Source: Methanobacteriota archaeon (GTDB lineage Archaea; Thermoplasmatota; Thermoplasmata; SG8-5; JAGLSY01). Taken from it: a stretch of DNA of 64,000 nt. Below are positions 2,756 to 57,754 of the stretch, piece by piece. Positions within the stretch are counted from its first letter, which is position 1; each line of letters opens with the position of its first letter. The notes below the pieces were generated by a model. It was not told the origin of the DNA. It did no database searches and worked only from the letters and a program-made list of their open reading frames with translations. Location of the stretch: positions 33,889 through 97,888 of the forward strand of contig JAEHCQ010000003.1 in NCBI GenBank assembly GCA_020696385.1. Reading direction: 5' to 3'. The translations under genes and the position numbers were made by a program.

Positions 2756-2977
2756 ATGAAACGATACAACCCGAGTGACAATATCATGGTCATACCATCC
2801 GCCCAATATCCACATATGATATCCATGCCAGATCGCAAGAACACAGTTCATTATGATCTCCACTCTCCTCAAAAGAAAACCAACAGGCCTGACAAGATCA
2901 ATCTGGTCAACAGAACAGCCATTTCGGTCATGTCCACTATAACCGGTCTGATATTGAAATGGAGGTCTGAAAGATGA
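2756..2977 (+). CDS. hypothetical small protein (73 aa)
   Basis: ORF preceded by a strong SD (gaggtgataaaaaATG). It overlaps the next ORF by ATGA, so the two are probably co-transcribed. Confidence 0.4.
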   Translation: MKRYNPSDNIMVIPSAQYPHMISMPDRKNTVHYDLHSPQKKTNRPDKINLVNRTAISVMSTITGLILKWRSER

Positions 2978-14859: not shown

Positions 14860-17875
<3,016 letters not shown>

Positions 17876-41094: not shown

Positions 41095-42795
41095 TCAATT
41101 TTTCTGCTTTGCATTCTTTTTGTTCTGTATTTTAGCCCAAGAATCCCTGAGGCCAACAGTTCTGTTGAATATGATATTCTCATCGGATGAATCCGGATCA
41201 ACACAGAAGTATCCAGTCCTCTCGAACTGCACAGTATCCCCATGCTTGAGATCCTTTACGGCAGGCTCCACCTTGCAGCCTGCCAGTGTCTTGAGTGAGT
41301 CGGGATTGATGAACTCCTTGTAATCATGCTCTTTTTCACCAAGGGGATGTTCCACCGTGAAAAGCCTGTCGTATAGGCGTATCTCCGTGTCAATGGATTC
41401 GGTCGCTGATACCCAATGAATGGTGGCCTTGACCTTGCGGCCATCAGGAGCATTGCCGCCACGACTGTCCAGATCCACGGAGCAATGCAATTCAACAACC
41501 TCGCCAGCATCATTTTTCACGACATCATTGTATGTCAGCAAGTACGCATATCTTAGGCGAACTTCCCGACCAGGTGCGAGCCTGAAGAATTTCTTGACTG
41601 GCTCCTCCATGAAATCCGCGCGCTCGATGAATATTTCTCGAGTAAAAGGAACCTGGCGACTTCCCGCATCCGGATCCTCTGGATTGTTTATGGCATCCAG
41701 CATGTCGATCTCGCCCTCCGGGAAATTGTCGATAACTATCTTGAGCGGGTCAAGAACTCCCATGACTCGCGATGCTTTTTTATTCAGATCATCGCGAACG
41801 CAAGCCTCCAGTAATTCGAAGGCGATGACATTCGCCTTCTTCGCAATACCTGCTCGAGAGCAGAATTCCTTGACGGCCTCGGGGGTGTAGCCGCGCCTCC
41901 GCATGCCACATATTGTCGGCATGCGCGGATCATCCCAGCCATTGACAAGCTCCTTGGTCACAAGCTCCTTGAGGAAACGCTTGCTCATTATCGTGTAAGA
42001 AACATTCATCCTGGCAAACTCGATCTGCTGTGGATGATAGATACCCAGCTCATCCAGGAACCAGTCGTAAAGTGGTCGATGATTTTCGAATTCTATCGAG
42101 CAAAGCGAGTGAGTGATACCCTCAATGGAATCCTCCAGGCCATGTGCCCAATCATAAATTGGATAGATACACCATTCGTCACCAGTATGCGGGTGGGTGG
42201 CATGCAGGATCCTGTACATTGGCGGGTCGCGCATATTCATGTTCGGATGCGCCATATCGATCTTCGCCCTCAGCGTCTTGGAGCCATCCGGGAATTCACC
42301 CTTCTTCATCCTCTCGAAGAGATCCAGGCTTTCCTCAACTGATCTTTCACGGTTGGGGCTGTTCCTACCGAGGTTATTGTAATCACCTCGGTATTCCTTC
42401 ATTTCCTCCGCATTGAGGTCGCAAACATACGCCTTGCCTTTTTTGATAAGGTCAATAGCATAGTCATACATCTGCTGGAAATAATCAGATGAGAATAATA
42501 GGCGATCCTCGAAATCCGCACCCAGCCATTTCACATCTTCCACGATGGAATCAATGAATTCCTTTTCTTCCGCAATGGGATTCGTGTCATCGAATCTAAG
42601 ATTGAATTTACCGCCATATTCGTCCGCGATCCCGTAATTGACCCAGATGGCCTTCGCACTGCCCAAGTGCAGGTATCCATTTGGCTCTGGTGGAAATCGA
42701 GTATGCACTCGTCCATCGTATTTCTTGGTCTTGAGGTCCTCGTCTATGACCTGTCTTATAAAATCGCGTGATTGGCTTTCTTCCATTGGATTCAC
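41095..42795 (-). CDS. glnS: glutaminyl-tRNA synthetase, bacterial type
   Basis: 566 aa that aligns along its whole length with E. coli GlnRS as recalled. Matches include NFIRQIIDEDL / DFIRQVIDEDL, VHTRFPPEPNGYLHIGHAK / VHTRFPPEPNGYLHLGSAK (HIGH motif), NLRFDDTNP, CIYPMYDF / CIYPIYDW, VMSKR (KMSKS-type), GWDDPRMPTI, RKVKG.IHWVSA, and NRTVGLRD.WAK at the C-terminus. Confidence 0.85.
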   Translation of the reverse strand: MNPMEESQSRDFIRQVIDEDLKTKKYDGRVHTRFPPEPNGYLHLGSAKAIWVNYGIADEYGGKFNLRFDDTNPIAEEKEFIDSIVEDVKWLGADFEDRLLFSSDYFQQMYDYAIDLIKKGKAYVCDLNAEEMKEYRGDYNNLGRNSPNRERSVEESLDLFERMKKGEFPDGSKTLRAKIDMAHPNMNMRDPPMYRILHATHPHTGDEWCIYPIYDWAHGLEDSIEGITHSLCSIEFENHRPLYDWFLDELGIYHPQQIEFARMNVSYTIMSKRFLKELVTKELVNGWDDPRMPTICGMRRRGYTPEAVKEFCSRAGIAKKANVIAFELLEACVRDDLNKKASRVMGVLDPLKIVIDNFPEGEIDMLDAINNPEDPDAGSRQVPFTREIFIERADFMEEPVKKFFRLAPGREVRLRYAYLLTYNDVVKNDAGEVVELHCSVDLDSRGGNAPDGRKVKATIHWVSATESIDTEIRLYDRLFTVEHPLGEKEHDYKEFINPDSLKTLAGCKVEPAVKDLKHGDTVQFERTGYFCVDPDSSDENIIFNRTVGLRDSWAKIQNKKNAKQKN

Positions 42796-42928
42796 CTTTT
42801 ATGGCCTAGGCTAATTGGAATTACCTAATTAATGTTTCTTTGGCAAACCATTCAAAAAGTAGGGTATCCAAAAAACGGGGTGCCAGGCATTATAAAAAAT
42901 CATAGATTTTAACGGTAAAAAAAGAAAG

Positions 42929-43002
42929 AGCCATTGGAGAGATTTGAACTCCCGACCTGCTGATTACAAATCAGCCGCTCAACCGGGCTAAGCTACAATG
43001 GC
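42929..43002 (-). tRNA. tRNA-Thr (anticodon UGU), no encoded CCA
   Basis: The reverse complement folds as acceptor GCCATTG/CAATGGC, D-arm GCTT-AGCCCGGTT-GAGC, anticodon arm GCTGA-TTTGTAA-TCAGC, T-arm GGGAG-TTCAAAT-CTCTC, and discriminator U. Confidence 0.8.
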
Positions 43003-43246
43003 GTATGCATTCTGTACCAATGGCCATTGTAGGTCGAGCTTCAATGGCGCATGGTATTATTACCCCTGGAAGTTAAATTTATATAAATATCTATTGAATG
43101 ACAAATCATTGCAAATGAGTTAAATATCAATTCGTTTTTACACGGTTGCTGAAATATGCAAAATGTGCTCAATTGCCTCGAGGTGTGAACACGGAACTTA
43201 AGTTCCTTAGTTGACACCACTCGGCTGTTGGGTATAAAAAACCCAA

Positions 43247-43318
43247 CAGCCTCGTAGTGTAGCGGTTATCATGGGAGACTCTGGATCTCTCGACTCCAGT
43301 TCAAATCTGGACGAGGCT
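43247..43318 (+). tRNA. tRNA-Gln (anticodon CUG), A1:U72 and discriminator A73, no encoded CCA
   Basis: Acceptor AGCCTCG/CGAGGCT, anticodon arm GGAGA-CTCTGGA-TCTCT (U33, anticodon CTG, G37), T-arm TCCAG-TTCAAAT-CTGGA. The D-arm TAGTGTAGCGGTTATCAT resembles archaeal tRNA-Gln. Confidence 0.7.
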
Positions 43319-43990
43319 ATATATTTTTATTAATGAGTCCAGATTTGAACTTAGCCCGAAAATGAATATCAACATTTTACAGCTTAATGCTAGGGCGTGA
43401 GCGTGGATTCGCAAGGCTAATCCACGTCATATTCAAAGAGGCTACCATATTTTATCACTTCATAAGTTTGATTTATCTTAACACAGTGAAGATCCATATA
43501 AAGAAAATGTAAACAATAATAACCGCCGAAATTCCTAAAAATAACAAAAAAAGTTGTGCGAAATAATCCTTTATATACTTTTCTATGGTCTATATTTAAA
43601 GGTTATTGCCAAAAAAATAATACCCACCAAAAGGTCTTTATATCTCCCTTCACAATAACCAAAATGGGATTGTGGCAAGGTGTTCGTTCCCTTGATATAG
43701 AATACCTTGCTTCGCCTCCTTATTTTTCAAATAATAGATCAATTATGAAATATAATTTTAAATTTTAATCCAGAAACATATGACATACTCTCAGGAAAAA
43801 AGGTGAAGCGAAAGGAAAAAGTAAACTTTATGGGGGAAGAGAGTCTAACAAAATGCCCCTCCGCTTCGTCACCAGCATATTGTAATTAGAATATAAGGTT
43901 TACGATTTGTATGACGGCATTCTACAGGCAGAGCAATATGATATTGTTATAGTGACTAGGTCATGTCTGCCATTATAATAGTCATGTCAA

Positions 43991-45009: not shown

Positions 45010-48000
45010 TCATTCTTCCTCGCTGGTCTTCATGCTATCAGCACAATCATTGCAGACGAAATCACCTTCTCCATCAGAGGATCCAGTCTTTCCAGACACT
45101 CCACAGTACGCACATTTGTCCTCTTTTGCTGGTTCAGGCTTCTCCTTATCGCTGCCACCCTTTCTCATGCTGATGACGGTGTTGACAAGAAGCAGGATTA
45201 TGACTATTATCAGAAGCAGCATGATGATGTTCTGATTTCCCTGCTGCTCACTTGACTCCGCACCCACCTTGTCCATCACGCTGGCCTCTGCCTCATCCAG
45301 ACTTTGTGCCAATGTGAAGAGATCGGCTCGGATCTCATCCAGTTTTGCAAGCTCTGCAAGAGTGTCATCGATATCTGCCAGGGTTGCATTGATATTATCC
45401 TGGAAGTCCATGATGTCCTGGTTCAGAGCCTGAAGATAAAGTAGAGCTCCAATGTCATGGGATGATAGATTGGCGGATATCCAATTCAGCCTCTGAGTTA
45501 ATTCGGCCAGTGTCAATGAATTGAGGTCACGGATAGTGTCATCGAGTAGAACCAGATCAGCAGTCATATTCTCATCATGAGATACCAGAAGCTCTCTCAG
45601 TCCGGCCAGTGAATTATTGAGGTCACTGTAGAAGCCATCCACCATGTTCTCAAGATCAACTATCCTGCTGTCCAGGTAGGCAGTGTCTGCATCCAGAGCG
45701 GCGATCATATCGATCAGCGCAGATGCAAGACCGTCCTGCATCGTGATGTTCAGACCATCCAGATCCATACTGAGACCATCCAATAGAAGGGTCAGGTCAG
45801 CTGTCTGATTCATTATCTGACTGTACAAAGCGAAGTCCACCCTGGCCAGTTCGTCCATGAAGGTCAGATTAAGGCCATCTATGAGACTGGTCAGGTTTCC
45901 CTCGACCTGCCATAGGTCCGAATACAGGCTGGCAACTGTCATGTTCAGGTAATCGATGTCCGCCTGAAGATCTGACACACTCATATTCAGCCAGGCAAGA
46001 TCTATCTGCACCTGAAGTAGAGTGGCATTGACATAATCAACATCGGCCTGCATAAGATCCAAAGTGGTATTGAAGTCTGCCCAGTAAGCAGATATCTGAC
46101 CATATGTCATCATATTCTCCATTGAGAGATTCGTCATACCGGAATCCATTGCGAATCTCATACTCGCTATGCTCGCATCCATCGCAGATATGTTAAGGTC
46201 CTGCGATGACAGCATTCCGCTTATGTATGATTCTGTGGCCGCCATGTCAGTCCAGGTTGTATTGAACCAGGCATTGGTTTGACTTGTCTGGGCCATAATG
46301 TCACCCCAGGTCATATTGAACCAATCATTGACCTGACTTGTCTGGGATGACGCATCAGCCCAGGTTGTGTTGAACCAATCATTGATCTGGGATGTCTGGG
46401 CTGCCATCGTGGTATTGTAATGTGCCCAGAACACTGTGAATTCCGCCCTCAGATCATTCAGGGATGACTGCATCGCCAGCTGTGTCATATTAGCAAAGTT
46501 CAGATCGTTCTGGATCTGTGTCATCGTGGTATTCCAGGATGTCCAGTATAGGCTCTGCAATGTATGTGTGTCATTATGCTGGCCCCACATTATCTGGAAA
46601 TAGTTCTGCATCGCGGCATCCATACTGGTCAGATTGGCATCCAGCTGTCCAAGATTTCCGGACAGATCGCTCAGAAGCAGGGTGATATTCGCCTCGAAGC
46701 CACTCATCTGGCTCCTGATGCTGGCGCCCTCGGCCTGGATGGTCAAGTTCAGACCATCCATCGTGGTGTTCAGATAGTTCTGATATGCCTGGAAATACAG
46801 ATGCCAGTTATCCCATGTTAGATTGAAATCATCCCTGTGTGCGAGCAATTGTGCCAGTATGATATTGGCCGTCGCATCCAAAGATGCAAGATCAAGCTGT
46901 ACTTGCAGAAGTGTGGCATTGAGGAAATCAATGTCCGCGCCCAGTGCGGCAGATGTCATATTCCAGTCTGCCCAGTAGAGGCCATGTAGTGCTTGTGTAT
47001 CATTGTGCTCGTCCCACATAGACTGGAAATAGGCCTGCATGACCGCATCCATGTTGGTCACATTAATATCCAACTGCCCAAGGTCAGCATCCAGATCATT
47101 CAAGAGAGCGGTCATATTGCCCTCGAAATCATTCATCTGGGTGTATACAATAGCTATCTGGTCCTGAAGTGTTATGTTCAATCCGTCAGTCGTTGTATTG
47201 AAATATGACCAGTATGAATCGAACTGCGCGTCCCATGTTGCCCAGGTTGCATTGAAATCAGTCCAATATGCCTGTATCAGCGCATTGTTCGCAGTCACTG
47301 TCGCATTGATATCAGTAATTGTCTGGATCCAGCCAACGACCTCGAAGCTGGTTATTCCAATGTAATTGAAGCCAGCTATCTGGGCGTTCACTGCAACGAA
47401 GTAGGTTCCTGCCGCGGGTATGCTGTCACTGTATGTGTAGAGCCCGAATGATGCATCCAGTATGTTCATGGATGCATTGTCCACGATCTTTGTCATGGTG
47501 TCGTCAAATATGGTCACGCTCACATTGGTGAAAGCGTCTGGCACCAATGCCTGACCGTTCTGGGTTACGGATGCCATGATATCATATTCAACACCATTGG
47601 CATCGTACTGAAGACCAGTTGTGACATCCACATTTGTTGGTGGTGTTGTGGAAGATAGGGTCACGGTGACTTCCTTTGACATATCGATTGAAGCAACAGT
47701 GGAGCCCATCAAAAGACCATTATTGGCAATAGCCAAATGCGGTGTATTAGCTGTCTGGCTAGCCTGATCCTCGACATACTCTGTCACAATATTCCATCTG
47801 GCATATCCATTAGCATCGGCATTCACATTGTAAAGCGGTGTATTGAAGATATCAGCGATCTCCACCTGTGCTCCTGGTACTGGCTGCATCATGTCATCAC
47901 GCACGTACACATCCATGAACCACTGTATCTCAAGTGTGGAGAGCGCATCCATATAATTTATGGATGCCTTGTTAAAGGTCGAGTTCAGTGTCGTGATGTG

Positions 48001-51000
48001 GCTGTCCTGGTCCAATGCCAACTCAAAGCCATTGCCAGAGAACGTGAAGTTCTCAATGGTGAAGGTACTGTCAACACCAAAAACACCGGTCGGAGAGTTG
48101 GTTATGGTATTCAGAGACATTGGAGTGGTATAATCAGAACCCCTTACACCCAGTCCAAAAGCCGTAAGTGCGTTCATTGTGTTGCCAGTTATGAGATTGT
48201 CACCAGAGTCCCAAGAATAGATACCTATGGGGCTGCTGGTTATAATGTTCGATATTACAGTGTTGCCGAATGTCCCATCAGACAATCTGATACCTTCAGA
48301 GATCGCGCCGGTAATAGTATTGCCAGATACAAGATTTCCAGTGGATGTAAGAGTGACTAAGACCCCTATCATTGAAGAGCTCATCAAATTGTTTGTAACA
48401 TAGTTCGAATCTGAATCACTTAAACTGATATCATTCTGGGCATTGCTATTGAATGTTGAACCGTTGATCACATTGTAATTTGACGATTGTAATCTTATGC
48501 CTCGCCATAGGCTTGAGGTGATCGTGGAGCCCTCGATGGTATTGTAATCACAATTAAAGGCAAACACCCCCCCACTGTCACTGTTCGTGATCACAGTATT
48601 GATAATGGTGTTGTAATCGGCATCACGCAGGTACAATCCATATCCCTCATCGCTATTGGATATCGTCGAGTTGATTATGTAGTTGTTATCTGACCTAAGG
48701 TACAATCCATGAGCATTGCCAGTGAATGTCGCATTGTAGAGAAATACGCCGTTTGCGTATACTTCCACACCTTCATTTGACCAATCCCAGCCGGCATCCC
48801 TAATGGTACTGTTCTCCACCCTGAAGCCAGCACCACTCATCACATTGATAAGATATCCAAAGGTCGTGTTGGACATCACAGTGCTTCCTTCGATTAGATT
48901 GAAGGTACCTGTGGAGTTCACCTGGATAAGATACTGGCCATGGAAGGCATTGTTCATTCTCAGCTCGGTCTCGTCAAGTATCAAAGAACCACCGCTCTCG
49001 ACCCAAATATCACCAGTCTGGTTCCAGAAGGATGGATCCACAGTTAGTGTTCCGCCATTCCTTATGACCAGCTGGCCAGTGAGATTGAATGATGAGTCCC
49101 TTATCAGGACATCGACACCATCGACGGTGACATCCTCGAAGTACGTCATGTCATCAAGATGTAATTCATCGCCATCACTTGCATTGGCGATGGCTCCCTG
49201 TAGTGTATCATACCACAATCCCTGGTCCCAATTGAGAACATGCTGGTCAGGATGTAACATATTCCATCCGAATGGGTTGGTATGGGGGAAATAATCAGTT
49301 GAGTCACCGTCGATCACGTATGGAACATCGACAAAGCCATCCCAGTTTATGTCCGGAGATGTCCAGGTGTCGAAATAATTACCACCCTGGGCATACCCTA
49401 GATTGTAGGTGTTGGCTGCGAAAGAATCCAATATATGCACAGTGTTATTGATGAAATTATTGTGGAATATGTAATTCCCATTGAAGCTGCCAGGTGATGT
49501 CACATAAATACCATTGGTTCCATCCCTGAAGGTATTATTGCTGATCTCATTGCCATTGGCAGTATTTGCTGAGCCACCATTCCATATCCCATTACCATTG
49601 CCAGATACCATGTTCCATCTTATCAGATTGTTATCTGAGTAATCCCAGATCCTGAATCCAATGCCTGAATTCAAAATGGTATTGTTGTTTATATCACAAA
49701 GATCCGTATTGACTATATTTATTCCATTGGCCGCATTGTCATAAAAGTCATTATATCGGACAATAACGCCATCGGCACCATTGAGCATCAATCCGTCCAA
49801 ACCATTCCCGTATATCATGTTCTGGAAGACCGTGGCTCCATCGGAGAACAGGTAAAGGCCAGTTCCGGTATTGTTGTAGATCGTGTTATTGGCTATATAA
49901 TGCGGTGATGTGGAATCCATCTGGATACCCTGACCACCATTGAATCCAACGGTATTACTCTCGATGATAGCATCATCAGGATAAGATCCCTCAAAGTAAA
50001 TTCCTGCGCCAGTGTTGTTGTGGACGTAATTATCGATCACCTCTGCCCAATCAGCATACCAGTAGAAGTTGATACCCTCTTCAGAATTGTAAGATATCTC
50101 ATTTCTATATATCTTATTGGAGTCGCCGTGGTAAACGTAGATACCGATCCTATTGTATTGAATAGTATTGTCAAGTATCTTGTTATTATCACAGTCATCA
50201 TCTTCCAGTGCTATGCCATCTACAGTGCTGTTCGTCACGGTGTTATTGTGTATCGTGTTTAATGTAGAGGTTCCGTACATTGATAATCCATTGGCCGCAC
50301 TGTTATTGATAGTGTTCCAGGCAATTATATTGGATGATCCTCTGAAGCGCATTCCATAGCTGTTCGAATCCAATATATCATTATCTCTGAAGATATTCGA
50401 GTTACCTGTGGAGATGATACCATATAGATTGGTATTGATGATCGTGTTATTATGAACCTTTGTTGAGTCACTGGCACTGTACATATCGATACCATAGGAG
50501 TTCGTATCGCTGATCGTATTATGGGAAATGATATTGTTGGACGCTCCGGTGAAGTATATTCCAGTTGCCCCGCCTGTTATGGTATTGTTGTCGACAATAC
50601 AATTTGTTGGACCATCGATCTGTAATATGTTCTGAGCAGTCGAGGAGGCCGAGAGGTCATTCCAGGTCACATTGTTCCACTGGCTAACACTGGTTATCCT
50701 GAGCTGACCAATATTGTCAATGATATCGTTTTGTGTAATGGTGTTAGAATCAGAACCATCAGCAACATAAATTCCCAGGTTGCCATTGTCATATACCATA
50801 TTGTTCTCGATCAGGTTGAAATTTGAATTCCAGACAACTCTGATTCCAGTCAATATATTTGAGCCCATTGAACTATTGGCTACATAACTGTAGTTTGAAT
50901 TATAGTATCCAAGGCCAAAGTAATTCCCGGTAACATTGACACTTTCCACTTTGACGTGTTCCGCATACCATATGGCAAGACCAGCATCATTGCCAGAACT

Positions 51001-54000
51001 ACCACTGTTGGTGATCTTAAACCCAGAGATATTGGCCCAGTCCGATGTGATCTGAGCAGAAGTTCCGGTTCCCAGAGCATCGATGGTGGTATTATCCATG
51101 CTGGCTCCGATCAATGTCAGAGCTTTGCTGACCACGACATTCTCATAATACTCACCCTCGCCCACAGTTATCGTGTGGCCGTCAAGGGTATCTGCATCGT
51201 CTATGGCCATCTGGATGGTCAAGAACTGTTCGCCAGAATCTGTATTGATGACCGAGCCTATGGCATTGGCAAGTGGGAAAGCATCCATATTCAGGCCAAT
51301 GACATATGGTACATCCACTATGCCATTGAGATCCGCATCTGGTGTCTGCCAGTCATTCCAATAATTACCCTGAGAGAGTATGCTGGATCCCCATGCATTC
51401 TCATCCAGCTCATAGACCTGGACACCATTGTCAATGAAATTGTTATGATAAAGGATATTGTCATTTCCTTCTTCAATATAAATCCCATATCCGAGATTAT
51501 CTTGGATCGTGTTATTTGTAAACATGTTGGTACGGTTCACTTGTAATGTAGCAGCTATCTCAGGTATGGCTCTAAGGAAAGGATAGGATGTGCCTTCATT
51601 GATATCCCAAACAGTAGTGAAGTCCCAGCCTGTGAATGTTGCTTCTTGCTGCATCTCGACTGTTGTCTTTCCAGTTCCGTCTGCACTAACCAGGTTCCCT
51701 GATGCATCTGTATCCCAGAAGCAATTGGTGACCGTGCCTATGATATCATATCCGACAAAGCCTCCCACAAAGGAGGTGCCTGTAGCATTGCCCGTGCTGT
51801 AGGAGTTCATGACCAAGCCTTCATTTCTTCCAACGAAGCCGCCAACTGAGCCACCGACCCCACTGGCACTGCCTGTGCTGTAGCAATTCGTTATTGAATC
51901 ATCACTCCATCCGACAAAGCCTCCAATATAATCCTCTCCATTGGCACTACCTGTACTGAAGCTGTTCATGATCGAACCCCAGTTCTCTCCAGCAAAGCCA
52001 CCGATGGAATCTCCTGTTCCGGTGGCATCGCCTGTACTGGAGCAGTTCTCGATAGTACCGGCATCGTTCACTCCAATGAAACCGCCAATTGAGAGGTCTC
52101 CAAGGACGATAGTAGTGCTGGAGCATTCTGTTATCAAACCAGCATCATTCCATCCTACAAAGCCACCTACTCCCTGAGAACCGCTCGCATTACCTGCGCT
52201 GAAGCAATTTGTTATCGTACCACCTGTATTTCTTCCAATGAAGCCGCCAACTCTGTGTGTAGTTCCTGTAATATCCCCAGTTGAATTGGAGTTCGTTATT
52301 GTTCCTTGGCCTAGACCCACAAGGGCTCCAACAAACTGATCACCAGTTATGTTGCAGTTGTCCAATATCAGATTGGTAACGGATGAAGGGATACCCAGAT
52401 AACCGAAAAGTCCAACATAATCTGTTGCTGGCCTATTGATGAATAGTCCATCGATCTCATATCCTTGGCCATCAAGTGAGCCTGAGAATTGGGTTGCAAG
52501 AGTTCCAATTGGTTCAAAGCCAGCTCCTGCATTCCATGTTGATGTGGCACTTGCATCGATATCATTCATCAAGTAGTAATCCACAGTCAGATCCAAACTC
52601 ATATTTTGGAGTTCAAAGACATTGAATATCATATTGGATGGTGCATTTGTTATTTGGAATGGATAACCGCTTCCATCCATTACTGCCCATACAGTAGTGA
52701 AATCCCAGCCAGTGTATGTCGATTGCTGTTGCATCTCGGCCGTGGTCTTTCCGTAAAGATCGACAATTCCTGTGTTGGATCCAAAGCCAGTCATCGATCC
52801 AGATGTATCCGTGTCCCAGAAACATGGGTCGATCGTGCCTTCATTCTCACCTGCGAATGCTCCAATATCTGAATTGCCGGTTGGAATACCCGTGCAATAG
52901 CTATTGATGATAGTTCCGAATATAGAGCCAACAGTGTTGATGCCAACAAAGCCACCGACCTTATTGTATCCGTTCACATCACTAAGACTGTATGAATTAT
53001 TGATGTAGTATTTGTTGGTTCCAGCAAAGCCGCCGTAACCATTGCCGGTGGTAGTATTGCCAACAGTGCCTGTGCTGAAACTTTGGACTATCGGGCCTTC
53101 ATTGAATCCAACGAAGCCGCCGACATCTAAAGCACCGTCAACATCCCCAGTGGCCGAGCAATCCTTGATCTCCATGATACCGAAAGATTTGGAGTGAATT
53201 CCCACAAAACCACCTATGGATGAGGAGAATGTAGAGCTAACGACCTTTGTGCTACTTGAGCTTCCGGTTATCTCGCCATAATTCTCTCCAACAAAGCCAC
53301 CGATCTGACTATTTCCATATAATAAGCCACCAGCACTGCAATCTGTGATAGTTCCAGTGTTAAGTGCCGTTAAGCCTCCTGCCATACCTCCAGAGGTTTG
53401 ATTTAAGAAACCAAATGTAGAGCTATCAGATATTGTCGAGCTCCAGGCCTGGCCAACTAAACCACCGAGGTATGATTTTCCTTCGATGTAGATATTGGTC
53501 ATGTGAACATTTTGGATCGTCGCGCCCCAAGTGTATCCAAACAATCCAAGATCACTCTCACCTGGACGAACCATTATCAAGCCGTTAATAGTGTATCCTT
53601 GACCATCCAGAGTACCCTGGAATGGACCACTTGAAGATCCAACAGTGACGAAACCCAGACCACCATTCCATGTTGATGTAGCACTTGCATCGATATTATT
53701 CATTATCTTATAGCTGGCTGTCAGATCATCATTCATTTCCTGAAGCTCATTGACATTGGTTATCTGATATGGATCACCAGGAGTTCCCGTGCCAGTACCT
53801 GTGAAGAAAGGTGCAGGAGTTGGAATTGGCTGTGAAGCAGTTCCTACATTTGTCTGACCTATCGTGCTAAATGGCGCATTGTAAGTTCCATTTATGAATA
53901 TTCCATCACCAGTATTTCCGACGATCGTGTTCCTGCTGATATCATTCACAACACCACTGTGGGTTGCGAGATCGTAAAGGTAGAGACCATCGCCATTGTT

Positions 54001-57000
54001 ATTCAATATCATGTTGTTTGTAATATCAATGTTAACGGAATAGTTGACAGCTATCCCATCATATCCGCTGTTACCGACAGTGTTGTTCCTCACTGGCGTG
54101 TCTTGAGCTTCCAATAGCCAGATACCGAAGTGACTGCTATTCCAGACCTCATTGTTCTCCACGGTATTGTTGTGGTGTGGGTTGTCATAAGTTCCGCCAT
54201 AATCATTCAGAATAGCAATGCCAGTCCAATTGCTGTTCGTGACATTATTTCCAATGATTTTTGTATTGTCTACCTCATATACTCCCCATAACAAACCAAT
54301 TCCATAGTTCCTGCTATCCGAGATAGTATTGTAAAGTATCTGATGATCGCTACCCTGGCCGAAATAAATACCGTGGCTGTTATTCGTGATATTATTGTAT
54401 CTAACTATATGCCCCCAGGTATTTCCACCGCCGATTCCGATCCCACCATTATCATAAACATCATTGTACTGATAAATACCATTGTTAGCATAACTCATAT
54501 AAGCACCATATATGTCATTGTTATGAATGGAATTGTTCTCTATGGTATTATAGTTACAACCATAATCATTTCCGATGCCGAAATAATAGTTATCAAATAC
54601 GTCATTATCCGCTATAACATTGTAATCTGAATATCTTTCAATATGGATACCACCATCAAAACTGCCCATACCCAGTCCATTGTTGTAGACTGTGTTTTCC
54701 CTTACAATATTGTAATCTGTTATACCAGTGAAAGAATACAGGTTTATGCCGTCCTCGTCATTATCGAAGACGGTGTTATTTGAAACTGTGTTATATCCTG
54801 CCTGATAGAGTAATATTCCGTTCTCCCTTTGCGAGTCAGAGACAGTGTTATTATCAATGATGTTCCATGATCCAGTAGATACCTGAATTCCATTGTATTC
54901 ACAGAAAGATATCGTATTGTTCAATATCATATTGGAGCTCGTGGACTGAACTCGGATTCCATCATAATCGCTGGCTGTTATTATATTACCCTCAATGGTA
55001 TTTGAGCTTCCAGCAGATATCCTGATACCATGCTGAGATCCGTACATGATATTGTCATACACATGAACATTGGTCACAGTGTCCAGGTTAACACCAGCAT
55101 CTGCACTTAAGCTGGTTCCGCCATTGGTGACATTGAATCCAGTTATGTTCACCCAGTTGGACTGGATATCCATAACTTTACCGACTCCACTGCCGTCAAT
55201 TGTTGTATTGTCCCTGCCAGCTCCCTGTATTGTCAGGGTCTTGTTGACTATGACATTCTCTGTGTATGTGCCTTCTGCAACAATGATCGTGTGCCCATCC
55301 ACTGTGTTTGAATCATCAATAGCTTCCTGGATATCTGAGAATGTATCACCAGTATCGATGTTTTCAACGGGGTCTGCTAAAAATGGCCAGCCACTTGGAG
55401 ATACCCAGGGGAAGTCGTCCTGGCCATTGGTGGAAAAGATGGTGTTCCAGGAACCTGCAGATGTCCATTCAATACCCATGTAAGGCGTGTCGCCTATGCC
55501 ATCGCCGTTACCATCAGCACCTGCATAGTCATCCCAGTAGTTACCACCAGATGGAAGTCCATTATCCCAGAATGGATTGCCGCTGTCAAAGGCATGGAAT
55601 CCAAGGTTGTTAATGAAATTATTATTGAAAATGACGGCTCCGATGTTCGGGCCATCCACAGTAATACCATTACCAGCGTTGCCGGAAATGGTATTGTTCT
55701 CTATGAAAGCATTATCCATATTAGCTCCGATATGAATACCATGTTGCAATGTACCAGTTACATTAAATCCAGATATCTCGACATTTGGTGCACCGATATA
55801 GAAACCAATATTGTTGACACCCTCGCCATCAAGAATGGTATTGTCCTTGTTCTCTCCGGTTATGATCAGTTCCTTGTCGATATTGACAGATTCATTGTAT
55901 GTTCCGGATTCGACAAATATCTCGTGGCCATCCAATGTCTCAGAAGCATCAATGGCTTCCTGAATGGTCCTGTATGTGAAACCAGTGTCCAAATTACTCA
56001 CTGGAGTCACCCAATAATTTGCCACCATCCAAGGATAAGCATCCGACCCAGTGCCTGGAATCGCTCGTGCTGTGTCTCCAATGCCATCTGAATTCGCATC
56101 TACGCCAATATAATCATCCCAATAATTACCACCAGTTGGGAGAGATTGAGACCATATTTGGGTGCCAGAGCCTTCGGAGTAAGCATGCATGGCATTACCA
56201 ATGAAATTATTGTTGTATATCTGGGTCTGAGGACCTTGTGAATTTGAAATAAAGTATAAATGGATACCGTATTGGCTGGCGCCAGAGATTGTGTTTCCAA
56301 TTATCCGATTATTGTGGGTGGCACTGAGATAAATGCCTAATGTGCCGCCAGTGATCGTGTTCGATTCGATGATGTTTCCAATACTTGGAAATCTTTGAAT
56401 GTACATACCATATGTATTGGATGTGAATGTGTTATCCTTAATTGAGGTGTAGGATGATTCCCAATCCCATATGCCTCTTGCATTGCTAGTCATTGTATTA
56501 TTGTTTATGTCATTGTGATCGGCTCCCACATATAAGGCAACAGCAGATGAATAACTAGATGTGAATGTATTTCCTGTGATCACATTGTAGGTGGCTCCTT
56601 GCAGCAATATACCCTGGCCATTGTCATGAATGATATTGTTCTCTATCAAGCAGTGATCGAAATTGTTAATGTAAATTCCACCATTGAGATTATATTGGTA
56701 TGAATTCTGTATTTTGAGATCCTTCACGGTCACATAGTCTGCCTGTATGTTCACAGTGTGCGTGACTAGGCCACCATCTATGATAGTGGTCAACGGATCC
56801 TCTCCCTGAAGTGTGATGGCTTTATCGATCACCACATTCTCAAAGTATGTTCCCGCACTGACCAGGATCGTATGCCCGTCTAGTGTCTCAGAGGCATCAA
56901 TAGCCTCCTGGATCGTGTTATAGCCAAAACCTGTGTCAATATTCTCCACAAGATATAGGGCATTGTCTTCATCTCCAAGATTCATCCCTATAACACTCAC

Positions 57001-57057
57001 TGGCATTATCATCATTACTGCTAATACAATTCCTAATATCTGTTGAACTGATCTCAT
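45010..57057 (-). CDS. giant cell-surface protein (~4015 aa): signal peptide, >=6 right-handed beta-helix modules, two blocks of GLUG repeats, ~780-aa Trp-rich N-glycosylation-sequon-dense alpha-helical repeat stalk, TM anchor, cytoplasmic zinc-ribbon tail
   Basis: SD ggagagg lies 6 nt before ATG 57057 (MRSVQQILGIVLAVMMIMPVSVIG); the ORF track's longer start at 57084 is less likely. Beta-helix modules begin with ...FTTIQEAIDASETLDGHTILVSAGTYFENVVIDKAITLQG. GLUG blocks include GGLVGQAWSS..., IGGFVGENYG..., VGGFIGRNTGG.... The C-terminal third is repetitive (...AYWTDFNATWATWDAQFDSYWSYFNTT...LNITLQ...) with ~430-bp DNA periodicity around 46.1-47.4 kb. The TM segment is IIMLLLIIVIILLLVNTVI. The tail is KCAYCGVSGKTGSSDGEGDFVCNDCADSMKTSEEE, a CxxC...CxxC arrangement. 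Confidence 0.85.
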   Translation of the reverse strand: MRSVQQILGIVLAVMMIMPVSVIGMNLGDEDNALYLVENIDTGFGYNTIQEAIDASETLDGHTILVSAGTYFENVVIDKAITLQGEDPLTTIIDGGLVTHTVNIQADYVTVKDLKIQNSYQYNLNGGIYINNFDHCLIENNIIHDNGQGILLQGATYNVITGNTFTSSYSSAVALYVGADHNDINNNTMTSNARGIWDWESSYTSIKDNTFTSNTYGMYIQRFPSIGNIIESNTITGGTLGIYLSATHNNRIIGNTISGASQYGIHLYFISNSQGPQTQIYNNNFIGNAMHAYSEGSGTQIWSQSLPTGGNYWDDYIGVDANSDGIGDTARAIPGTGSDAYPWMVANYWVTPVSNLDTGFTYRTIQEAIDASETLDGHEIFVESGTYNESVNIDKELIITGENKDNTILDGEGVNNIGFYIGAPNVEISGFNVTGTLQHGIHIGANMDNAFIENNTISGNAGNGITVDGPNIGAVIFNNNFINNLGFHAFDSGNPFWDNGLPSGGNYWDDYAGADGNGDGIGDTPYMGIEWTSAGSWNTIFSTNGQDDFPWVSPSGWPFLADPVENIDTGDTFSDIQEAIDDSNTVDGHTIIVAEGTYTENVIVNKTLTIQGAGRDNTTIDGSGVGKVMDIQSNWVNITGFNVTNGGTSLSADAGVNLDTVTNVHVYDNIMYGSQHGIRISAGSSNTIEGNIITASDYDGIRVQSTSSNMILNNTISFCEYNGIQVSTGSWNIIDNNTVSDSQRENGILLYQAGYNTVSNNTVFDNDEDGINLYSFTGITDYNIVRENTVYNNGLGMGSFDGGIHIERYSDYNVIADNDVFDNYYFGIGNDYGCNYNTIENNSIHNNDIYGAYMSYANNGIYQYNDVYDNGGIGIGGGNTWGHIVRYNNITNNSHGIYFGQGSDHQILYNTISDSRNYGIGLLWGVYEVDNTKIIGNNVTNSNWTGIAILNDYGGTYDNPHHNNTVENNEVWNSSHFGIWLLEAQDTPVRNNTVGNSGYDGIAVNYSVNIDITNNMILNNNGDGLYLYDLATHSGVVNDISRNTIVGNTGDGIFINGTYNAPFSTIGQTNVGTASQPIPTPAPFFTGTGTGTPGDPYQITNVNELQEMNDDLTASYKIMNNIDASATSTWNGGLGFVTVGSSSGPFQGTLDGQGYTINGLIMVRPGESDLGLFGYTWGATIQNVHMTNIYIEGKSYLGGLVGQAWSSTISDSSTFGFLNQTSGGMAGGLTALNTGTITDCSAGGLLYGNSQIGGFVGENYGEITGSSSSTKVVSSTFSSSIGGFVGIHSKSFGIMEIKDCSATGDVDGALDVGGFVGFNEGPIVQSFSTGTVGNTTTGNGYGGFAGTNKYYINNSYSLSDVNGYNKVGGFVGINTVGSIFGTIINSYCTGIPTGNSDIGAFAGENEGTIDPCFWDTDTSGSMTGFGSNTGIVDLYGKTTAEMQQQSTYTGWDFTTVWAVMDGSGYPFQITNAPSNMIFNVFELQNMSLDLTVDYYLMNDIDASATSTWNAGAGFEPIGTLATQFSGSLDGQGYEIDGLFINRPATDYVGLFGYLGIPSSVTNLILDNCNITGDQFVGALVGLGQGTITNSNSTGDITGTTHRVGGFIGRNTGGTITNCFSAGNASGSQGVGGFVGWNDAGLITECSSTTIVLGDLSIGGFIGVNDAGTIENCSSTGDATGTGDSIGGFAGENWGSIMNSFSTGSANGEDYIGGFVGWSDDSITNCYSTGSASGVGGSVGGFVGRNEGLVMNSYSTGNATGTSFVGGFVGYDIIGTVTNCFWDTDASGNLVSADGTGKTTVEMQQEATFTGWDFTTVWDINEGTSYPFLRAIPEIAATLQVNRTNMFTNNTIQDNLGYGIYIEEGNDNILYHNNFIDNGVQVYELDENAWGSSILSQGNYWNDWQTPDADLNGIVDVPYVIGLNMDAFPLANAIGSVINTDSGEQFLTIQMAIDDADTLDGHTITVGEGEYYENVVVSKALTLIGASMDNTTIDALGTGTSAQITSDWANISGFKITNSGSSGNDAGLAIWYAEHVKVESVNVTGNYFGLGYYNSNYSYVANSSMGSNILTGIRVVWNSNFNLIENNMVYDNGNLGIYVADGSDSNTITQNDIIDNIGQLRITSVSQWNNVTWNDLSASSTAQNILQIDGPTNCIVDNNTITGGATGIYFTGASNNIISHNTISDTNSYGIDMYSASDSTKVHNNTIINTNLYGIISTGNSNIFRDNDILDSNSYGMRFRGSSNIIAWNTINNSAANGLSMYGTSTLNTIHNNTVTNSTVDGIALEDDDCDNNKILDNTIQYNRIGIYVYHGDSNKIYRNEISYNSEEGINFYWYADWAEVIDNYVHNNTGAGIYFEGSYPDDAIIESNTVGFNGGQGIQMDSTSPHYIANNTIYNNTGTGLYLFSDGATVFQNMIYGNGLDGLMLNGADGVIVRYNDFYDNAANGINIVNTDLCDINNNTILNSGIGFRIWDYSDNNLIRWNMVSGNGNGIWNGGSANTANGNEISNNTFRDGTNGIYVTSPGSFNGNYIFHNNFINNTVHILDSFAANTYNLGYAQGGNYFDTWTSPDINWDGFVDVPYVIDGDSTDYFPHTNPFGWNMLHPDQHVLNWDQGLWYDTLQGAIANASDGDELHLDDMTYFEDVTVDGVDVLIRDSSFNLTGQLVIRNGGTLTVDPSFWNQTGDIWVESGGSLILDETELRMNNAFHGQYLIQVNSTGTFNLIEGSTVMSNTTFGYLINVMSGAGFRVENSTIRDAGWDWSNEGVEVYANGVFLYNATFTGNAHGLYLRSDNNYIINSTISNSDEGYGLYLRDADYNTIINTVITNSDSGGVFAFNCDYNTIEGSTITSSLWRGIRLQSSNYNVINGSTFNSNAQNDISLSDSDSNYVTNNLMSSSMIGVLVTLTSTGNLVSGNTITGAISEGIRLSDGTFGNTVISNIITSSPIGIYSWDSGDNLITGNTMNALTAFGLGVRGSDYTTPMSLNTITNSPTGVFGVDSTFTIENFTFSGNGFELALDQDSHITTLNSTFNKASINYMDALSTLEIQWFMDVYVRDDMMQPVPGAQVEIADIFNTPLYNVNADANGYARWNIVTEYVEDQASQTANTPHLAIANNGLLMGSTVASIDMSKEVTVTLSSTTPPTNVDVTTGLQYDANGVEYDIMASVTQNGQALVPDAFTNVSVTIFDDTMTKIVDNASMNILDASFGLYTYSDSIPAAGTYFVAVNAQIAGFNYIGITSFEVVGWIQTITDINATVTANNALIQAYWTDFNATWATWDAQFDSYWSYFNTTTDGLNITLQDQIAIVYTQMNDFEGNMTALLNDLDADLGQLDINVTNMDAVMQAYFQSMWDEHNDTQALHGLYWADWNMTSAALGADIDFLNATLLQVQLDLASLDATANIILAQLLAHRDDFNLTWDNWHLYFQAYQNYLNTTMDGLNLTIQAEGASIRSQMSGFEANITLLLSDLSGNLGQLDANLTSMDAAMQNYFQIMWGQHNDTHTLQSLYWTSWNTTMTQIQNDLNFANMTQLAMQSSLNDLRAEFTVFWAHYNTTMAAQTSQINDWFNTTWADASSQTSQVNDWFNMTWGDIMAQTSQTNAWFNTTWTDMAATESYISGMLSSQDLNISAMDASIASMRFAMDSGMTNLSMENMMTYGQISAYWADFNTTLDLMQADVDYVNATLLQVQIDLAWLNMSVSDLQADIDYLNMTVASLYSDLWQVEGNLTSLIDGLNLTFMDELARVDFALYSQIMNQTADLTLLLDGLSMDLDGLNITMQDGLASALIDMIAALDADTAYLDSRIVDLENMVDGFYSDLNNSLAGLRELLVSHDENMTADLVLLDDTIRDLNSLTLAELTQRLNWISANLSSHDIGALLYLQALNQDIMDFQDNINATLADIDDTLAELAKLDEIRADLFTLAQSLDEAEASVMDKVGAESSEQQGNQNIIMLLLIIVIILLLVNTVISMRKGGSDKEKPEPAKEDKCAYCGVSGKTGSSDGEGDFVCNDCADSMKTSEEE

Positions 57058-57310
57058 ATTTGTCCTCTCCGATTCATTGTGCACGCAAATCGCGTACCTT
57101 AACTCTGTTACAACACGGGATTAACAGATTATTAATATAGTTATGCACTAATAAAAATAAATATGAATATATGTATATAATGCACCATATAATAATTAAC
57201 GATGGTTAATGAAACTATTGTAATAATAAAATGTTAATTATTATATGCAAAACGCACCATTATTACACCCAATGATGCGGAAAGATAACTAAAAAATAAG
57301 ATATAAAGCA

Positions 57311-57331
57311 AAAGCGCCGAGGGGGAGACGA
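57311..57331. repeat. 21-bp direct repeat of the tRNA-Ser 3' end + flank (att-like)
   Basis: gcaaaagcgccgagggggaga is identical to 57441-57461. The second copy is the 3' end of the tRNA-Ser gene on the minus strand. Confidence 0.7.
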
Positions 57332-57447
57332 GCAAAGATGTTTCTTTGCGAGCAAGACCAAAAATGTTACATATTCCAGCGATGACTTTTGGTTGTAGTT
57401 TTCGAATCGACCCCTCAGCGCTGGCTATCAATATTAAAATGCAAAAG

Positions 57448-57567
57448 CGCCGAGGGGGAGATTCGAACTCCCGAGGTGAAACACCACCGGCTTTCTGACC
57501 CAGAAATGAAATGAAATGACATTTCTGAATTCGAGGCCGGCGCCCTACCGGACTAGACTACCTCGGC
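57448..57567 (-). tRNA. tRNA-Ser (anticodon CGA) with 37-nt intron at position 37/38, long variable arm, discriminator G73, no encoded CCA
   Basis: The reverse complement reads GCCGAGG-TA-GTCT-AGTCCGGTA-GGGC-G-CCGGC-CTCGAA[TTCAGAAATGTCATTTCATTTCATTTCTGGGTCAGAA]A-GCCGG-TGGTGTTTCACCTC-GGGAG-TTCGAAT-CTCCC-CCTCGGC-G. The intron contains an 8-bp internal helix (CAGAAATG/CATTTCTG) and an (ATTTC)x3 repeat. Confidence 0.8.
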
Positions 57568-57636
57568 TTTTGGTTTATATATTCAGAGAGGTAGGAAAGT
57601 ACGGGTTAGGCCCGTGAGTGAAACGTCAGGGCCGGT

Positions 57637-57658
57637 TACCGGACTAGACTACCTCGGC
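57637..57658 (-). pseudogene. partial duplicate of the tRNA-Ser 5' 22 nt (no T-arm or 3' acceptor)
   Basis: The minus strand reads GCCGAGGTAGTCTAGTCCGGTA, identical to tRNA-Ser positions 1-22, then diverges (ACCGGCCCTGACGTTTCACTCACGGGCC...). It lies ~70 bp upstream of the intact tRNA-Ser. Confidence 0.6.
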
Positions 57659-57754
57659 ATATGCTAAGTTCCCTGTAATATCACCAATTATAAAATCTCA
57701 CCTATCAAACGAAAAGGTTATTTCTATTCCGGCAATACGGGTGTCGGTGAGCCC

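Follow-up and report, generated by a model that had tools for sequence, protein, structure and literature searches.

Why should a single tRNA gene be surrounded by fragments of itself, and do such fragments record the passage of mobile elements? The question is raised by the tRNA-Ser(CGA) gene of a Thermoplasmatota archaeon, within a contiguous stretch of 64,000 nucleotides that was analysed as a whole and is here called the window. An earlier note had described three partial copies of this gene and attributed them to successive integrations by tyrosine-recombinase elements. All three copies are real, lie within 3 nt of the positions first assigned to them and exceed what chance would produce, and the arrangement that they form recurs at tRNA gene ends across the lineage and is not the debris of one locus reused by large elements. 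We read it in this way because no recombinase or element body is found, the inserts are small, parts of the arrangement are conserved in the related genomes L001 and L042, and the same architecture is present at the tRNA-Thr and tRNA-Gln genes of the window. The comparison extends over about eight loci, all of them in metagenome-assembled genomes (MAGs). As an explanation we favour small, recurrent insertion modules at tRNA termini that would regenerate the end they enter, together with one apparent birth of an intron, and we give this proposal a probability of roughly 0.5.

Among the pieces, the intact tRNA-Ser(CGA) gene is the sole working copy. It occupies 57448-57567 on the minus strand, where the Rfam tRNA model scored 44.7 bits (gathering score 29) and ARAGORN called no tRNA-Ser(CGA), and it has a long variable arm, one canonical intron and a predicted fold with a cloverleaf and an intron helix. 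The anticodon loop, CUCGAA, gives the anticodon CGA (Ser), and across this gene and those of L001, L041, L042 and L044 the exons vary at a single T-stem base. The Rfam alignment places 40 nt between CUCG and GCCGG, which upon comparison with the intron-less gene of L048 yields a canonical intron of 37 nt at position 37/38 (about 57493-57529, minus strand), with boundaries ambiguous by one or two A residues. This intron is strongly diverged between the window and L001 and was used as a neutral yardstick. A split or permuted tRNA gene is ruled out by the presence of a contiguous, well-folding gene. A TATA-like box, TTTTATAA (57688-57695, minus strand), lies 29 nt upstream of the distal copy of the tRNA 5' end and is the putative promoter. 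This copy stands where the tRNA itself would begin relative to the box, and relatives without such copies have a conserved AT-rich box equally far from the first tRNA nucleotide.

In what follows copies of the 5' and 3' ends of a tRNA are designated A and B, respectively, and their inverted counterparts A' and B'. At the 3' end of tRNA-Ser an exact 21-mer, TCTCCCCCTCGGCGCTTTTGC in the tRNA sense, is found at both 57441-57461 and 57308-57328. It comprises tRNA positions 60-73 and 7 nt of trailer; the copies lie 133 nt apart from start to start with 111 bp of DNA between them, and the match around them extends to 25 of 27 nt. Proximal B (57441-57461, minus strand), with the trailer CTTTTGC, serves as the functional 3' end of the gene. 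The trailer with its two T4 runs (CTTTTGCATTTTAATATTGATAGCC, 57423-57447, minus strand) forms the loop between B and B'; oligo-T termination is established in archaea, and this stretch may be the terminator of tRNA-Ser. B' (57401-57422, minus strand; AGCGCTGAGGGGTCGATTCGAA in the tRNA sense) consists of the inverted T-loop, the 3' strands of the T-stem and acceptor stem and 2 nt of trailer. It is complementary to 57446-57467 at 19 of 22 positions, the arms being 23 nt apart, and pairs with either proximal or distal B in predicted folds. The body of the module (57329-57400, minus strand) is made up of hairpin 1 (57357-57393), hairpin 2 (57332-57349) and a final TCG. Outside B and B' there is no similarity to the tRNA, and a decayed inverted tRNA pseudogene was rejected on this ground. 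Distal B (57308-57328, minus strand) is the second copy of tRNA positions 60-73 and trailer; the module lies behind the putative T-run terminator, and distal B has kept its junction with the ancestral downstream flank, as is shown by its alignment with the flank of the third tRNA-Ser exon in L001. When the 150-nt flanks were dinucleotide-shuffled 300 times, the score of the inverted copy was attained once and those of the direct copies never. The earlier note had placed the direct copy at 57311-57331, 3 nt away from its actual position, and was correct as to its exactness and as to the diverged inverted copy on the opposite strand.

The 3' module of tRNA-Ser is homologous to that of L042 (local alignment, 0/1000 shuffles), and both hairpins show compensatory changes: ACCAAAA/TTTTGGT in the window versus GACCAAT/ATTGGTC in L042 for hairpin 1, and GCAAAGA/TCTTTGC versus GCAAGAAG/CTTCTTGC for hairpin 2. 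In the predicted fold of the long form of the window, the 5' junction falls within a continuous B/B' helix and the 3' junction, TCG/TCTCC, has no 3-nt bulge. The 133-nt segment up to distal B was accordingly rejected as a bulge-helix-bulge intron, since the geometry is absent at either junction and the T-runs precede B'.

At the 5' end an exact 22-mer, GCCGAGGTAGTCTAGTCCGGTA, occurs at 57546-57567 and 57637-57658 (two matches observed, 0.00 expected), with 69 nt between the copies, as had been claimed for a copy about 70 bp upstream. Distal A (57637-57658, minus strand) is an exact copy of tRNA positions 1-22 and is conserved in L001. The body of this 5' unit (unit B; 57568-57636, minus strand) contains A', the heptamer CTACCTC (57588-57594) complementary to tRNA-Ser positions 4-10, and a 20-nt AT-rich spacer that precedes tRNA position 1. 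The heptamer by itself was not significant in the window when compared with shuffles; a longer form, GGACTACCTC, recurs in L001, L041 and L046. Distal A and the first 51 nt of the body are the same in L001 at 70 of 73 positions, and the tRNA-adjacent spacer is diverged. If the TATA-like box is the promoter, the 5' unit, being situated between promoter and gene, would be transcribed as a long leader that RNase P would remove.

The nesting of direct and inverted copies had been thought unusual, but all three tRNAs in the window (Ser, Thr and Gln) have a tRNA-end copy, an inverted complement, a short body and the real end. The tRNA-Gln(CTG) locus (43175-43444, plus strand) begins with a distal A-like copy (43175-43187), A' (43214-43226) and a leader hairpin (43227-43247), followed by the tRNA (43248-43319), B' (43337-43351), a module hairpin (43401-43427) and a second GAGGCTA (43438-43444). 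B' matches at 15 of 15 positions, a score reached by 0/300 shuffles. The Gln module is present in L050 and absent from L049, whose trailer aligns with the sequence past the second GAGGCTA of the window, leaving a clean, repeat-bounded insertion/deletion difference of 125 bp. In two clades the module is exactly 124 nt long, with 81% identity versus 53% in the adjacent spacer. The leader hairpin co-varies (GTTGGGT/ACCCAAC in the window versus GTTGGGC/GCCCAAC in L049). The tRNA-Thr(TGT) gene (42928-43002) has an upstream unit, the whole occupying 42928-43048 on the minus strand, with A' CTACAATGGC at 43023-43032 and distal A GCCATTGAAGCT, in which T8 is changed to A, at 43037-43048; their scores were reached by 10/300 and 3/300 shuffles. 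L050 has the Thr unit with matching changes, and in L049 it is absent, 29 nt separating the TATA box from the tRNA. The bodies of the Ser (72 nt) and Gln (about 86 nt) 3' modules have no similarity to the tRNA, the tRNA complement or the empty-site flank, and the weak similarity between them (p about 0.003-0.01 among 72 comparisons) did not give a convincing multiple alignment.

The same architecture was found in relatives from three gcvPA clades, and was not found at two tRNAs of distant Thermoplasmatota (L005 and L037). The modules of tRNA-Ser, one per gene end, are of a type that recurs at tRNA termini in a family-level group of Thermoplasmatota. Unit copy number varies from 0 to 4 among close relatives, with tandem arrays of four units in L046 (before tRNA-Ser), two in L041, two in L001 and about 1.5 Gln modules in L050; L044 lacks the tRNA-Ser module and all such elements, yet has other inserts. 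Across modules the repeats measure 7 to 49 nt and the inserts 34-125 bp, and the spacing is regular, A' lying 17-23 nt ahead of position 1 and B 23-24 nt from B'. The inverted copy overlaps the repeat in Ser and lies 5' of it in Gln. Copies track their own tRNA: GCCATTG.AGCT with CTACAATGGC in the window versus GCCACTGTAGCT with CTACTGTGGC in L050 for Thr, a distal GAGGCTA versus GGGGCTA in L050 for Gln, and TCTCCCCC versus TCTCTCC in L042 for Ser. The repeats of 21-22 nt at tRNA-Ser are close to a common k-mer size; an assembly artefact was rejected, as structures of different lengths recur in independent assemblies, including an NCBI MAG (L042) and a Logan assembly (L043) that are identical across the locus.

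Read in the direction of transcription, the layout common to the modules is a tRNA-end copy, a short loop, the inverted end, a short body and the end again, and one copy in every module completes the intact tRNA. Such modules may arise by insertion into a tRNA end, which would be regenerated in the process by way of a fold-back (hairpin) DNA intermediate, and the likeliest agent would be a site-specific recombinase whose substrates are miniature or decayed elements. Their later fate could be inheritance, homogenisation against the neighbouring tRNA, tandem amplification or deletion between the repeats. The wide range of repeat lengths excludes a fixed staggered cut, and a model with a single hairpin site is weakened because the inverted copy is placed differently with respect to the repeat in Ser and Gln.

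The sister genome L001 offers another state of the same gene end. Its tRNA-Ser is without proximal B and without the inverted copy, and a 49-nt intron at position 59/60 precedes an exon 3 that, with its flank, is orthologous to distal B of the window; when joined, the exons equal the contiguous tRNA sequence of the window. The pre-tRNA folds as a cloverleaf (z = -5.9), where a TTCG(A):(U)CGAA helix separates the two bulges that contain the splice sites. Minimum-energy and centroid folds both have the T-stem, a 3-nt bulge (AU/U), the UUCG(A):(U)CGAA helix, a second bulge (A/C) and a 4+9-bp inner helix. At minimum energy the helix between the bulges has 5 bp; opening of A58:U would shorten it to 4 bp and leave a 3-nt bulge. 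From these folds the gene appears to carry a predicted bulge-helix-bulge intron outside the canonical position 37/38. In the long-form fold of the window, proximal B and B' make a self-contained hairpin between two TTCGAA hexamers, and deletion of the palindrome between these hexamers would put an intron exactly at the L001 position. The motif TTGCTCG is found immediately ahead of exon 3 in the window, L001 and L042, and in L042, the outgroup to the other two, exon 3 starts after B', hairpin 1, hairpin 2 and TCG. Because this outgroup also has the module, the module state is the parsimonious ancestor. Homology between the L001 intron and the module body was not significant by local alignment and rests on position and the TTGCTCG motif; four bases (AAAT) at the 3' splice site of L001 are absent in the window and L042. 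An intron would have been born when L001 lost the palindromic part (proximal B, loop and B'), so that the remainder of the module became the 49-nt intron and the former distal copy became exon 3. The window would then keep the precursor state of a T-loop intron.

The rival that survives best, though we hold it to be unlikely, returns to integration: large tyrosine-recombinase elements would repeatedly have entered both ends of tRNA-Ser and then been almost wholly deleted, leaving attL/attR and about 70-110 bp. The 3' direct repeat does begin in the T-loop and extend beyond the tRNA end, the shape of a classical attachment-site identity block; repeat-bounded insertions and deletions concentrate at tRNA flanks in the lineage, those of tRNA-Ser varying among relatives as at a hot spot, and there are precedents in other archaea (PMC3293823, PMC9897764). 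However, no integrase, recombinase, transposase or element genes were found between or beside the repeats, in the window or at about eight related loci, and the 111-bp and 69-bp stretches between the tRNA-Ser copies contain no ORF. The integration claim of the earlier note thus stands as to the attachment-site-shaped repeat and the hot spots and fails as to the element itself. Remnants equally small across clades, as for the Gln module, both ends of one gene and 3/3 tRNAs of the window being affected, and inverted copies left unexplained also speak against nearly complete deletion. The neighbours of tRNA-Ser are gcvPA/gcvPB, a giant ORF of 4024 aa (NosD/beta-helix) and an SNase/LTD gene, the last of which adjoins tRNA-Ser in L041; the 12-kb giant gene that intervenes in the window could suggest an island, but it is outside the repeat-bounded segment, as the distal copy is on its tRNA side and the window contains no additional one. 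A matching attP was not found in viral, phage or plasmid collections, whose coverage of this uncultured lineage is uncertain: IMG/VR returned no match carrying the sequence, and blastn of the whole locus gave no match in the phage collection and, among plasmids, nothing beyond 36 nt of tRNA-like sequence on a Natrinema replicon. Exact patterns (a 26-mer of the tRNA 5' half and a 25-mer of Gln B') had no match in JGI metagenome contigs. It had also been argued that the same repeats in relatives with no island would indicate conserved leader and trailer structure, and this is borne out in part by the 5' unit kept in L001 and by the homologous 3' module kept in L042, which belongs to another clade.

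Next in rank, and improbable in our view, are local replication errors with no mobile DNA involved, by which fold-back priming and template switching at stems, slippage and drift would yield direct-inverted-direct structures similar to DUP-TRP/INV-DUP. This topology is seen at both gene ends, the copies agree with the tRNA beside them, tRNA-Thr has similar proximal and distal leaders, and loss of the palindrome between the TTCGAA repeats would account for the L001 state. Against such errors are 3' bodies that resemble neither the tRNA, its complement nor the empty-site flank, a Gln module conserved across clades in length and sequence, and the regular spacing of A' and B'.

More doubtful again is a bolder form of the insertion reading, namely that the modules are an undescribed class of miniature, gene-less elements, each specific to one tRNA end and each bearing an inverted version of its target, by which it could fold into a hairpin that mimics the tRNA gene end. 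They would insert via that hairpin, in analogy to CTX phage and the attC sites of integrons, and regenerate the target, which would account for the tandem arrays, and they might be converted to a non-canonical intron by loss of the palindrome. If this were so, the passage of mobile DNA into bulge-helix-bulge introns, and potentially into split tRNAs, could be observed directly.

The least probable of these alternatives is that the copies are selected RNA or DNA elements, either leader and trailer hairpins for pre-tRNA folding, processing or termination, or decoys for integrases. Conservation above that of neighbouring neutral sequence, compensatory changes in the Gln leader hairpin and in Ser hairpins 1 and 2, regular spacing, the change of T8 to A in distal copies at three different tRNAs and strong predicted folds (z = -4.9) would be in line with selection. 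The elements are nevertheless dispensable, L049 lacking the Thr unit and Gln module and L044 everything; their number ranges from 0 to 4 in close relatives, B' behind the T-runs may not be co-transcribed with the tRNA, and no known RNA family in Rfam matches the modules, which have no C/D boxes. A C/D box sRNA guiding T-loop methylation was likewise dismissed, with no C/D family near threshold in Rfam and no RUGAUGA/CUGA pair bracketing B'. The target duplication of casposons is 14-15 bp, and a casposon or other transposon with terminal inverted repeats was rejected, given a duplication of 7-49 nt that is not fixed, module ends that are not mutual inverted repeats and the absence of a transposase or Cas1. 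As a separate observation, and one that runs counter to the insertion reading, some parts of the modules look selected, namely the 5' unit (70/73), the Gln module in its length and identity, and the compensatory hairpins.

The origin of non-canonical introns and split tRNAs in archaea is an open question for which few intermediates are known. Both states of one step appear to be represented by the two sister genomes, with a palindrome and a duplicated 3' end in the window and, in L001, a T-loop intron for which the duplicate serves as exon. Partial tRNA copies beside tRNA genes need not be the footprints of large elements, which bears on tRNA annotation and on the prediction of genomic islands in MAGs. 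If the modules are mobile in their own right, they would represent a new kind of tRNA-targeted element.

The closest known case is the tRNA-Thr(GGU) of Caldiarchaeum subterraneum (Sugahara et al. 2012, PMC3293823), where a 5' tRNA fragment is directly repeated ahead of the complete gene and an extra non-canonical intron, present in one variant and missing in another, was read as intron gain coupled to the insertion of a mobile element. The repeated 5' fragment and the variable extra intron are common to both systems. In Caldiarchaeum subterraneum, however, the insert is 1.8 kb long and encodes a recombinase and the intron was proposed to enter with attP, whereas the present inserts are gene-less, always have an inverted copy and affect both gene ends and several tRNAs, and the 59/60 intron appears to arise by palindrome deletion within an existing 3' module. 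Partial tRNA genes derived from integrated elements are also known in Thermococcaceae (PMC9897764). As in the attL/attR of SSV1-type and pNOB8-type integrases, a direct repeat of a 3' (or 5') tRNA segment flanks the insert and an intact, reconstituted tRNA is found at one border; those repeats are kilobases apart and the present ones 133 and 91 nt, with no integrase or element body, and that type of integration is not characterised by inverted copies or tandem mini-arrays. Attachment sites that act as folded hairpins include attP(+) of CTX phage with XerCD and attC of integrons. As an analogy of topology only, integration of such a folded single strand predicts the order observed here, that is reconstituted site, loop, inverted site, body and reconstituted site, as well as tandem arrays. 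The present case differs from CTX and attC in its gene-less bodies, in that no recombinase was identified and in the position of the tRNA-Gln repeat outside the stem in which the inverted copy pairs. To our knowledge, non-canonical tRNA introns are uncommon in Euryarchaeota-type lineages. Bulge-helix-bulge introns of this kind have been described in the ultrasmall ARMAN archaea (PMC3239211, PMC4090602), and non-canonical introns with intron transposition in Crenarchaeota (Thermoproteales) in work cited within PMC3218864. L001 resembles Thermoproteales and ARMAN in having a second intron outside 37/38 with predicted splice sites in bulges around a short helix, and differs from them in its Thermoplasmatota host, in the T-loop position 59/60 and in that a plausible precursor state survives in a sister genome.

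Three partial copies of the tRNA-Ser(CGA) gene surround the gene itself, and each is real when judged against shuffle controls, as an earlier note made from the sequence alone had claimed. The gene (57448-57567, minus strand; Rfam tRNA, 44.7 bits) carries a 37-nt intron at 37/38, as seen by comparison with the intron-less gene of a relative (L048), and because of this intron it was not called by ARAGORN. An exact 21-mer, comprising tRNA positions 60-73 and the trailer CTTTTGC, is found at the working 3' end (57441-57461) and again distally at 57308-57328, 3 nt from where the earlier note had placed it. An inverted copy of the 3' end (57401-57422) matches at 19 of 22 positions and lies 23 nt from its partner, while an exact 22-mer copy of tRNA positions 1-22 is located at 57637-57658. 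The level of either direct copy was attained in none of 300 shuffles and that of the inverted copy in a single one of 300. Two T4 runs keep the tRNA end and the inverted copy apart, and 29 nt separate the distal 5' copy from a TATA-like box upstream of it, from which we infer that transcription begins at that copy and for the most part stops ahead of the inverted one.

The locus is flanked by gcvPA/gcvPB (57755 onward, plus strand) and by a giant ORF of 4024 aa with an N-terminal signal-like sequence (45010-57084, minus strand), whose orthologue in the sister genome (L001) has 4143 aa and NosD/beta-helix repeats. Past the giant ORF follow an SNase/LTD gene, tRNA-Gln, tRNA-Thr and a glutaminyl-tRNA synthetase (GlnRS) gene. 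In the relative L041 the SNase/LTD gene directly adjoins tRNA-Ser without a giant gene between them, and the 12-kb gene would therefore be a lineage-specific insertion beside the tRNA, or have been lost elsewhere. The GlnRS gene, adjoining tRNA-Thr and tRNA-Gln, encodes a 564-aa GlnRS/YqeY fusion (41095-42795, minus strand); its homologues are named 'glutamine--tRNA ligase/YqeY domain fusion protein' in databases, and close ones include Planctomycetota proteins with 67-68% identity. GlnRS is to our knowledge unusual in archaea, and the gene may thus be a bacterial acquisition. The rRNA genes appear unlinked: a 23S rRNA gene was found at 14874-17861 (minus strand, 2784 bits), and the full 64 kb of the window yielded no 16S or 5S rRNA.

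Orthologous loci anchored on gcvPA fall into three clades sharing about 70% protein identity: the window with L001, L041 with L048, and L042/L043 with L046, L044 and L045. The tRNA-Ser(CGA) gene is situated just upstream of gcvPA in all loci that reach far enough (the L045 contig stops short), and its flanks vary. In the window, one 5'-side insert (unit) holds the 22-nt copy, and the 3' side reads tRNA end, loop, inverted copy, hairpin 1, hairpin 2 and distal 21-nt copy, the insert here called the module. L001 has the same unit (70/73 positions identical, the canonical intron and spacers having diverged) followed by a second hairpin unit; it lacks a separate module and carries a 49-nt insert at 59/60. 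L041 has two units (GCCGAGGTAGTC, loop, GGACTACCTC, 20-nt spacer) and only a degenerate stretch resembling the inverted copy. L042, identical in this respect to L043, is free of units and harbours a homologous module (GAGATTCGAA, hairpin 1, hairpin 2, TCG, TCTCTCC), whose similarity to that of the window was attained in 0 of 1000 shuffles and whose two hairpins are both preserved through compensatory changes. L046 has four tandem units and its contig stops at the tRNA 3' end; the ENA scaffold ends exactly there (position 1), where a repeated 3' module could have broken the assembly. L048 lacks units, and an inverted-copy-like GAGATAATTTGAA precedes its contig end.

L044 has neither unit nor module. 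Downstream of its otherwise clean tRNA-Ser, two unrelated 27-nt direct repeats, ATGCGAC.TTACCCACGGAACCTACGC, occur about 100 nt apart (~2640-2760, minus strand), the first copy forming a hairpin followed by a T-run; this is a different small repeat in the same hot spot. A conserved non-coding motif, GTAAACTTTATGGGGGAAGAGAGTCTAACAAAATG, is shared by the window (43821-43855) and the tRNA-Gln/tRNA-Thr locus of the L001 genome (L049), where it occupies the interval from tRNA-Gln to the SNase/LTD gene, and by L042 (~2395-2440) and L044 (~2515-2560), where it is found downstream of tRNA-Ser in opposite orientation; it may represent a small RNA or regulatory element. Canonical introns also differ between close relatives: that of tRNA-Ser(CGA) is absent in L048 (58-140) and present at all other loci. 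For tRNA-Gln(CTG), an intron (36 nt, at 37/38) is seen only in the locus from the L042 genome (L050, ~2648-2756), where the gene escapes both ARAGORN and Rfam at gathering threshold.

The tRNA-Ser of L001 reads GGGAGTTCGAA, 49 nt, TCTCCCCCTCGGCG, and without the 49 nt is exactly the tRNA of the window. Its two-intron precursor has a predicted cloverleaf fold (z = -5.9) with the new splice sites in AU|U and A|C bulges flanking a UUCG(A):(U)CGAA helix, followed next after the bulges by a 4+9-bp inner helix. The flank of L001 exon 3 aligns to that of the distal, not the proximal, copy in the window. Were the transcript of the window to read through to the distal copy, the proximal and inverted copies are predicted to form a closed hairpin between two TTCGAA hexamers and the distal copy to complete the T and acceptor stems; deletion between the hexamers would yield an intron exactly at 59/60. 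L042, an outgroup to the window and L001, carries the inverted copy and module, so that parsimony favours the module as ancestral and the L001 intron as derived. The intron and module bodies have no significant similarity; all they have in common is a hairpin at the corresponding position and the TTGCTCG that immediately precedes exon 3. At its 3' splice site L001 contains four additional bases, AAAT.

The architecture is not specific to tRNA-Ser. Window tRNA-Gln (43248-43319) is followed by a perfect 15-nt inverted T-arm copy with 24 nt between the arms (0/300 shuffles), then by a foreign stretch of about 86 nt that contains a hairpin, closing with a second GAGGCTA. L049 is entirely without this module and its trailer aligns to window sequence past the second GAGGCTA, which gives a clean 125-bp insertion/deletion difference. 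The L050 module is equally long (124 nt) and 81% identical, compared with only 53% for the adjacent spacer; its distal copy, GGGGCTA, agrees with its own tRNA, and a second partial module follows in tandem. Units upstream of tRNA-Gln are present in all three genomes, and in the leader hairpin the window and L049 differ by a compensatory change. Upstream of tRNA-Thr, the window has GCCATTGAAGCT-CGAC-CTACAATGGC, L049 no unit, and L050 GCCACTGTAGCT-GAAC-CTACTGTGGC, tracking the acceptor stem of its own genome. Nothing comparable was found at two control tRNAs from distant Thermoplasmatota. Spacing in the sequences is regular: 17-23 nt separate the end of the inverted 5' copy from tRNA position 1, and 23-24 nt the 3' end from its inverted copy; the distance from distal 5' copy to promoter box, checkable in tRNA-Thr (window) and tRNA-Ser (L041), equals that from the tRNA start in unit-free relatives.

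U8 is a universally conserved tRNA position. In distal 5' copies of tRNA-Thr, tRNA-Gln and tRNA-Ser it is changed from T to A (window 43037-43048 and 43175-43187; L001 ~5845-5856; L046 unit 2), so that the unit hairpin contains an A-A mismatch. Over positions 1-12 this is the sole change in the Thr and Ser copies, while the Gln copy has a few others. The recurrence looks non-random.

These comparisons establish presence/absence differences bounded by repeats, tandem arrays, copies that follow the sequence of the neighbouring tRNA and recur at other tRNAs and in other genomes, module bodies not derived from tRNA, and a distal 3' copy orthologous to L001 exon 3. We suggest that modules arise through insertion into a tRNA end via a fold-back intermediate, a recombinase being the probable catalyst, and are subsequently homogenised, amplified or lost. 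Confidence in this mechanism is moderate because the evidence is a handful of MAG loci. Three other explanations each account for part of the data and are not mutually exclusive. Ordinary scars of tyrosine-recombinase integration, as read by the earlier note, are supported in part by the differences bounded by repeats; against them, no integrase is found near the window tRNA-Ser locus, and because relatives have these structures in common the reading of conserved leader or trailer structure, which that note had set against its own, is partly borne out. Replication template switching is a second. Selection on leader or trailer structures is a third: several parts are conserved and three tRNAs share T8 to A in distal copies, arguing against a purely neutral view, while close relatives without modules argue against an essential function. 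The structures do not qualify as an integrated element, there being no element body, and the defining features of a casposon, a split tRNA or a C/D guide RNA were lacking.

The arrangement is a new twist on the established connection of insertions targeting tRNA genes with tRNA fragments and the gain of introns, and is of particular value for its pair of sister genomes bracketing the intron-gain step. Its nearest known parallel is the tRNA-Thr locus of Caldiarchaeum, where members of one population differ in a 5' fragment, an insert of 1.8 kb bearing a recombinase, and an additional intron (PMC3293823). In contrast to that locus, the inserts described here are miniature and gene-less and never lack an inverted copy, several tRNAs and either end of the gene are affected, and the intron would have been gained through loss of a palindrome.
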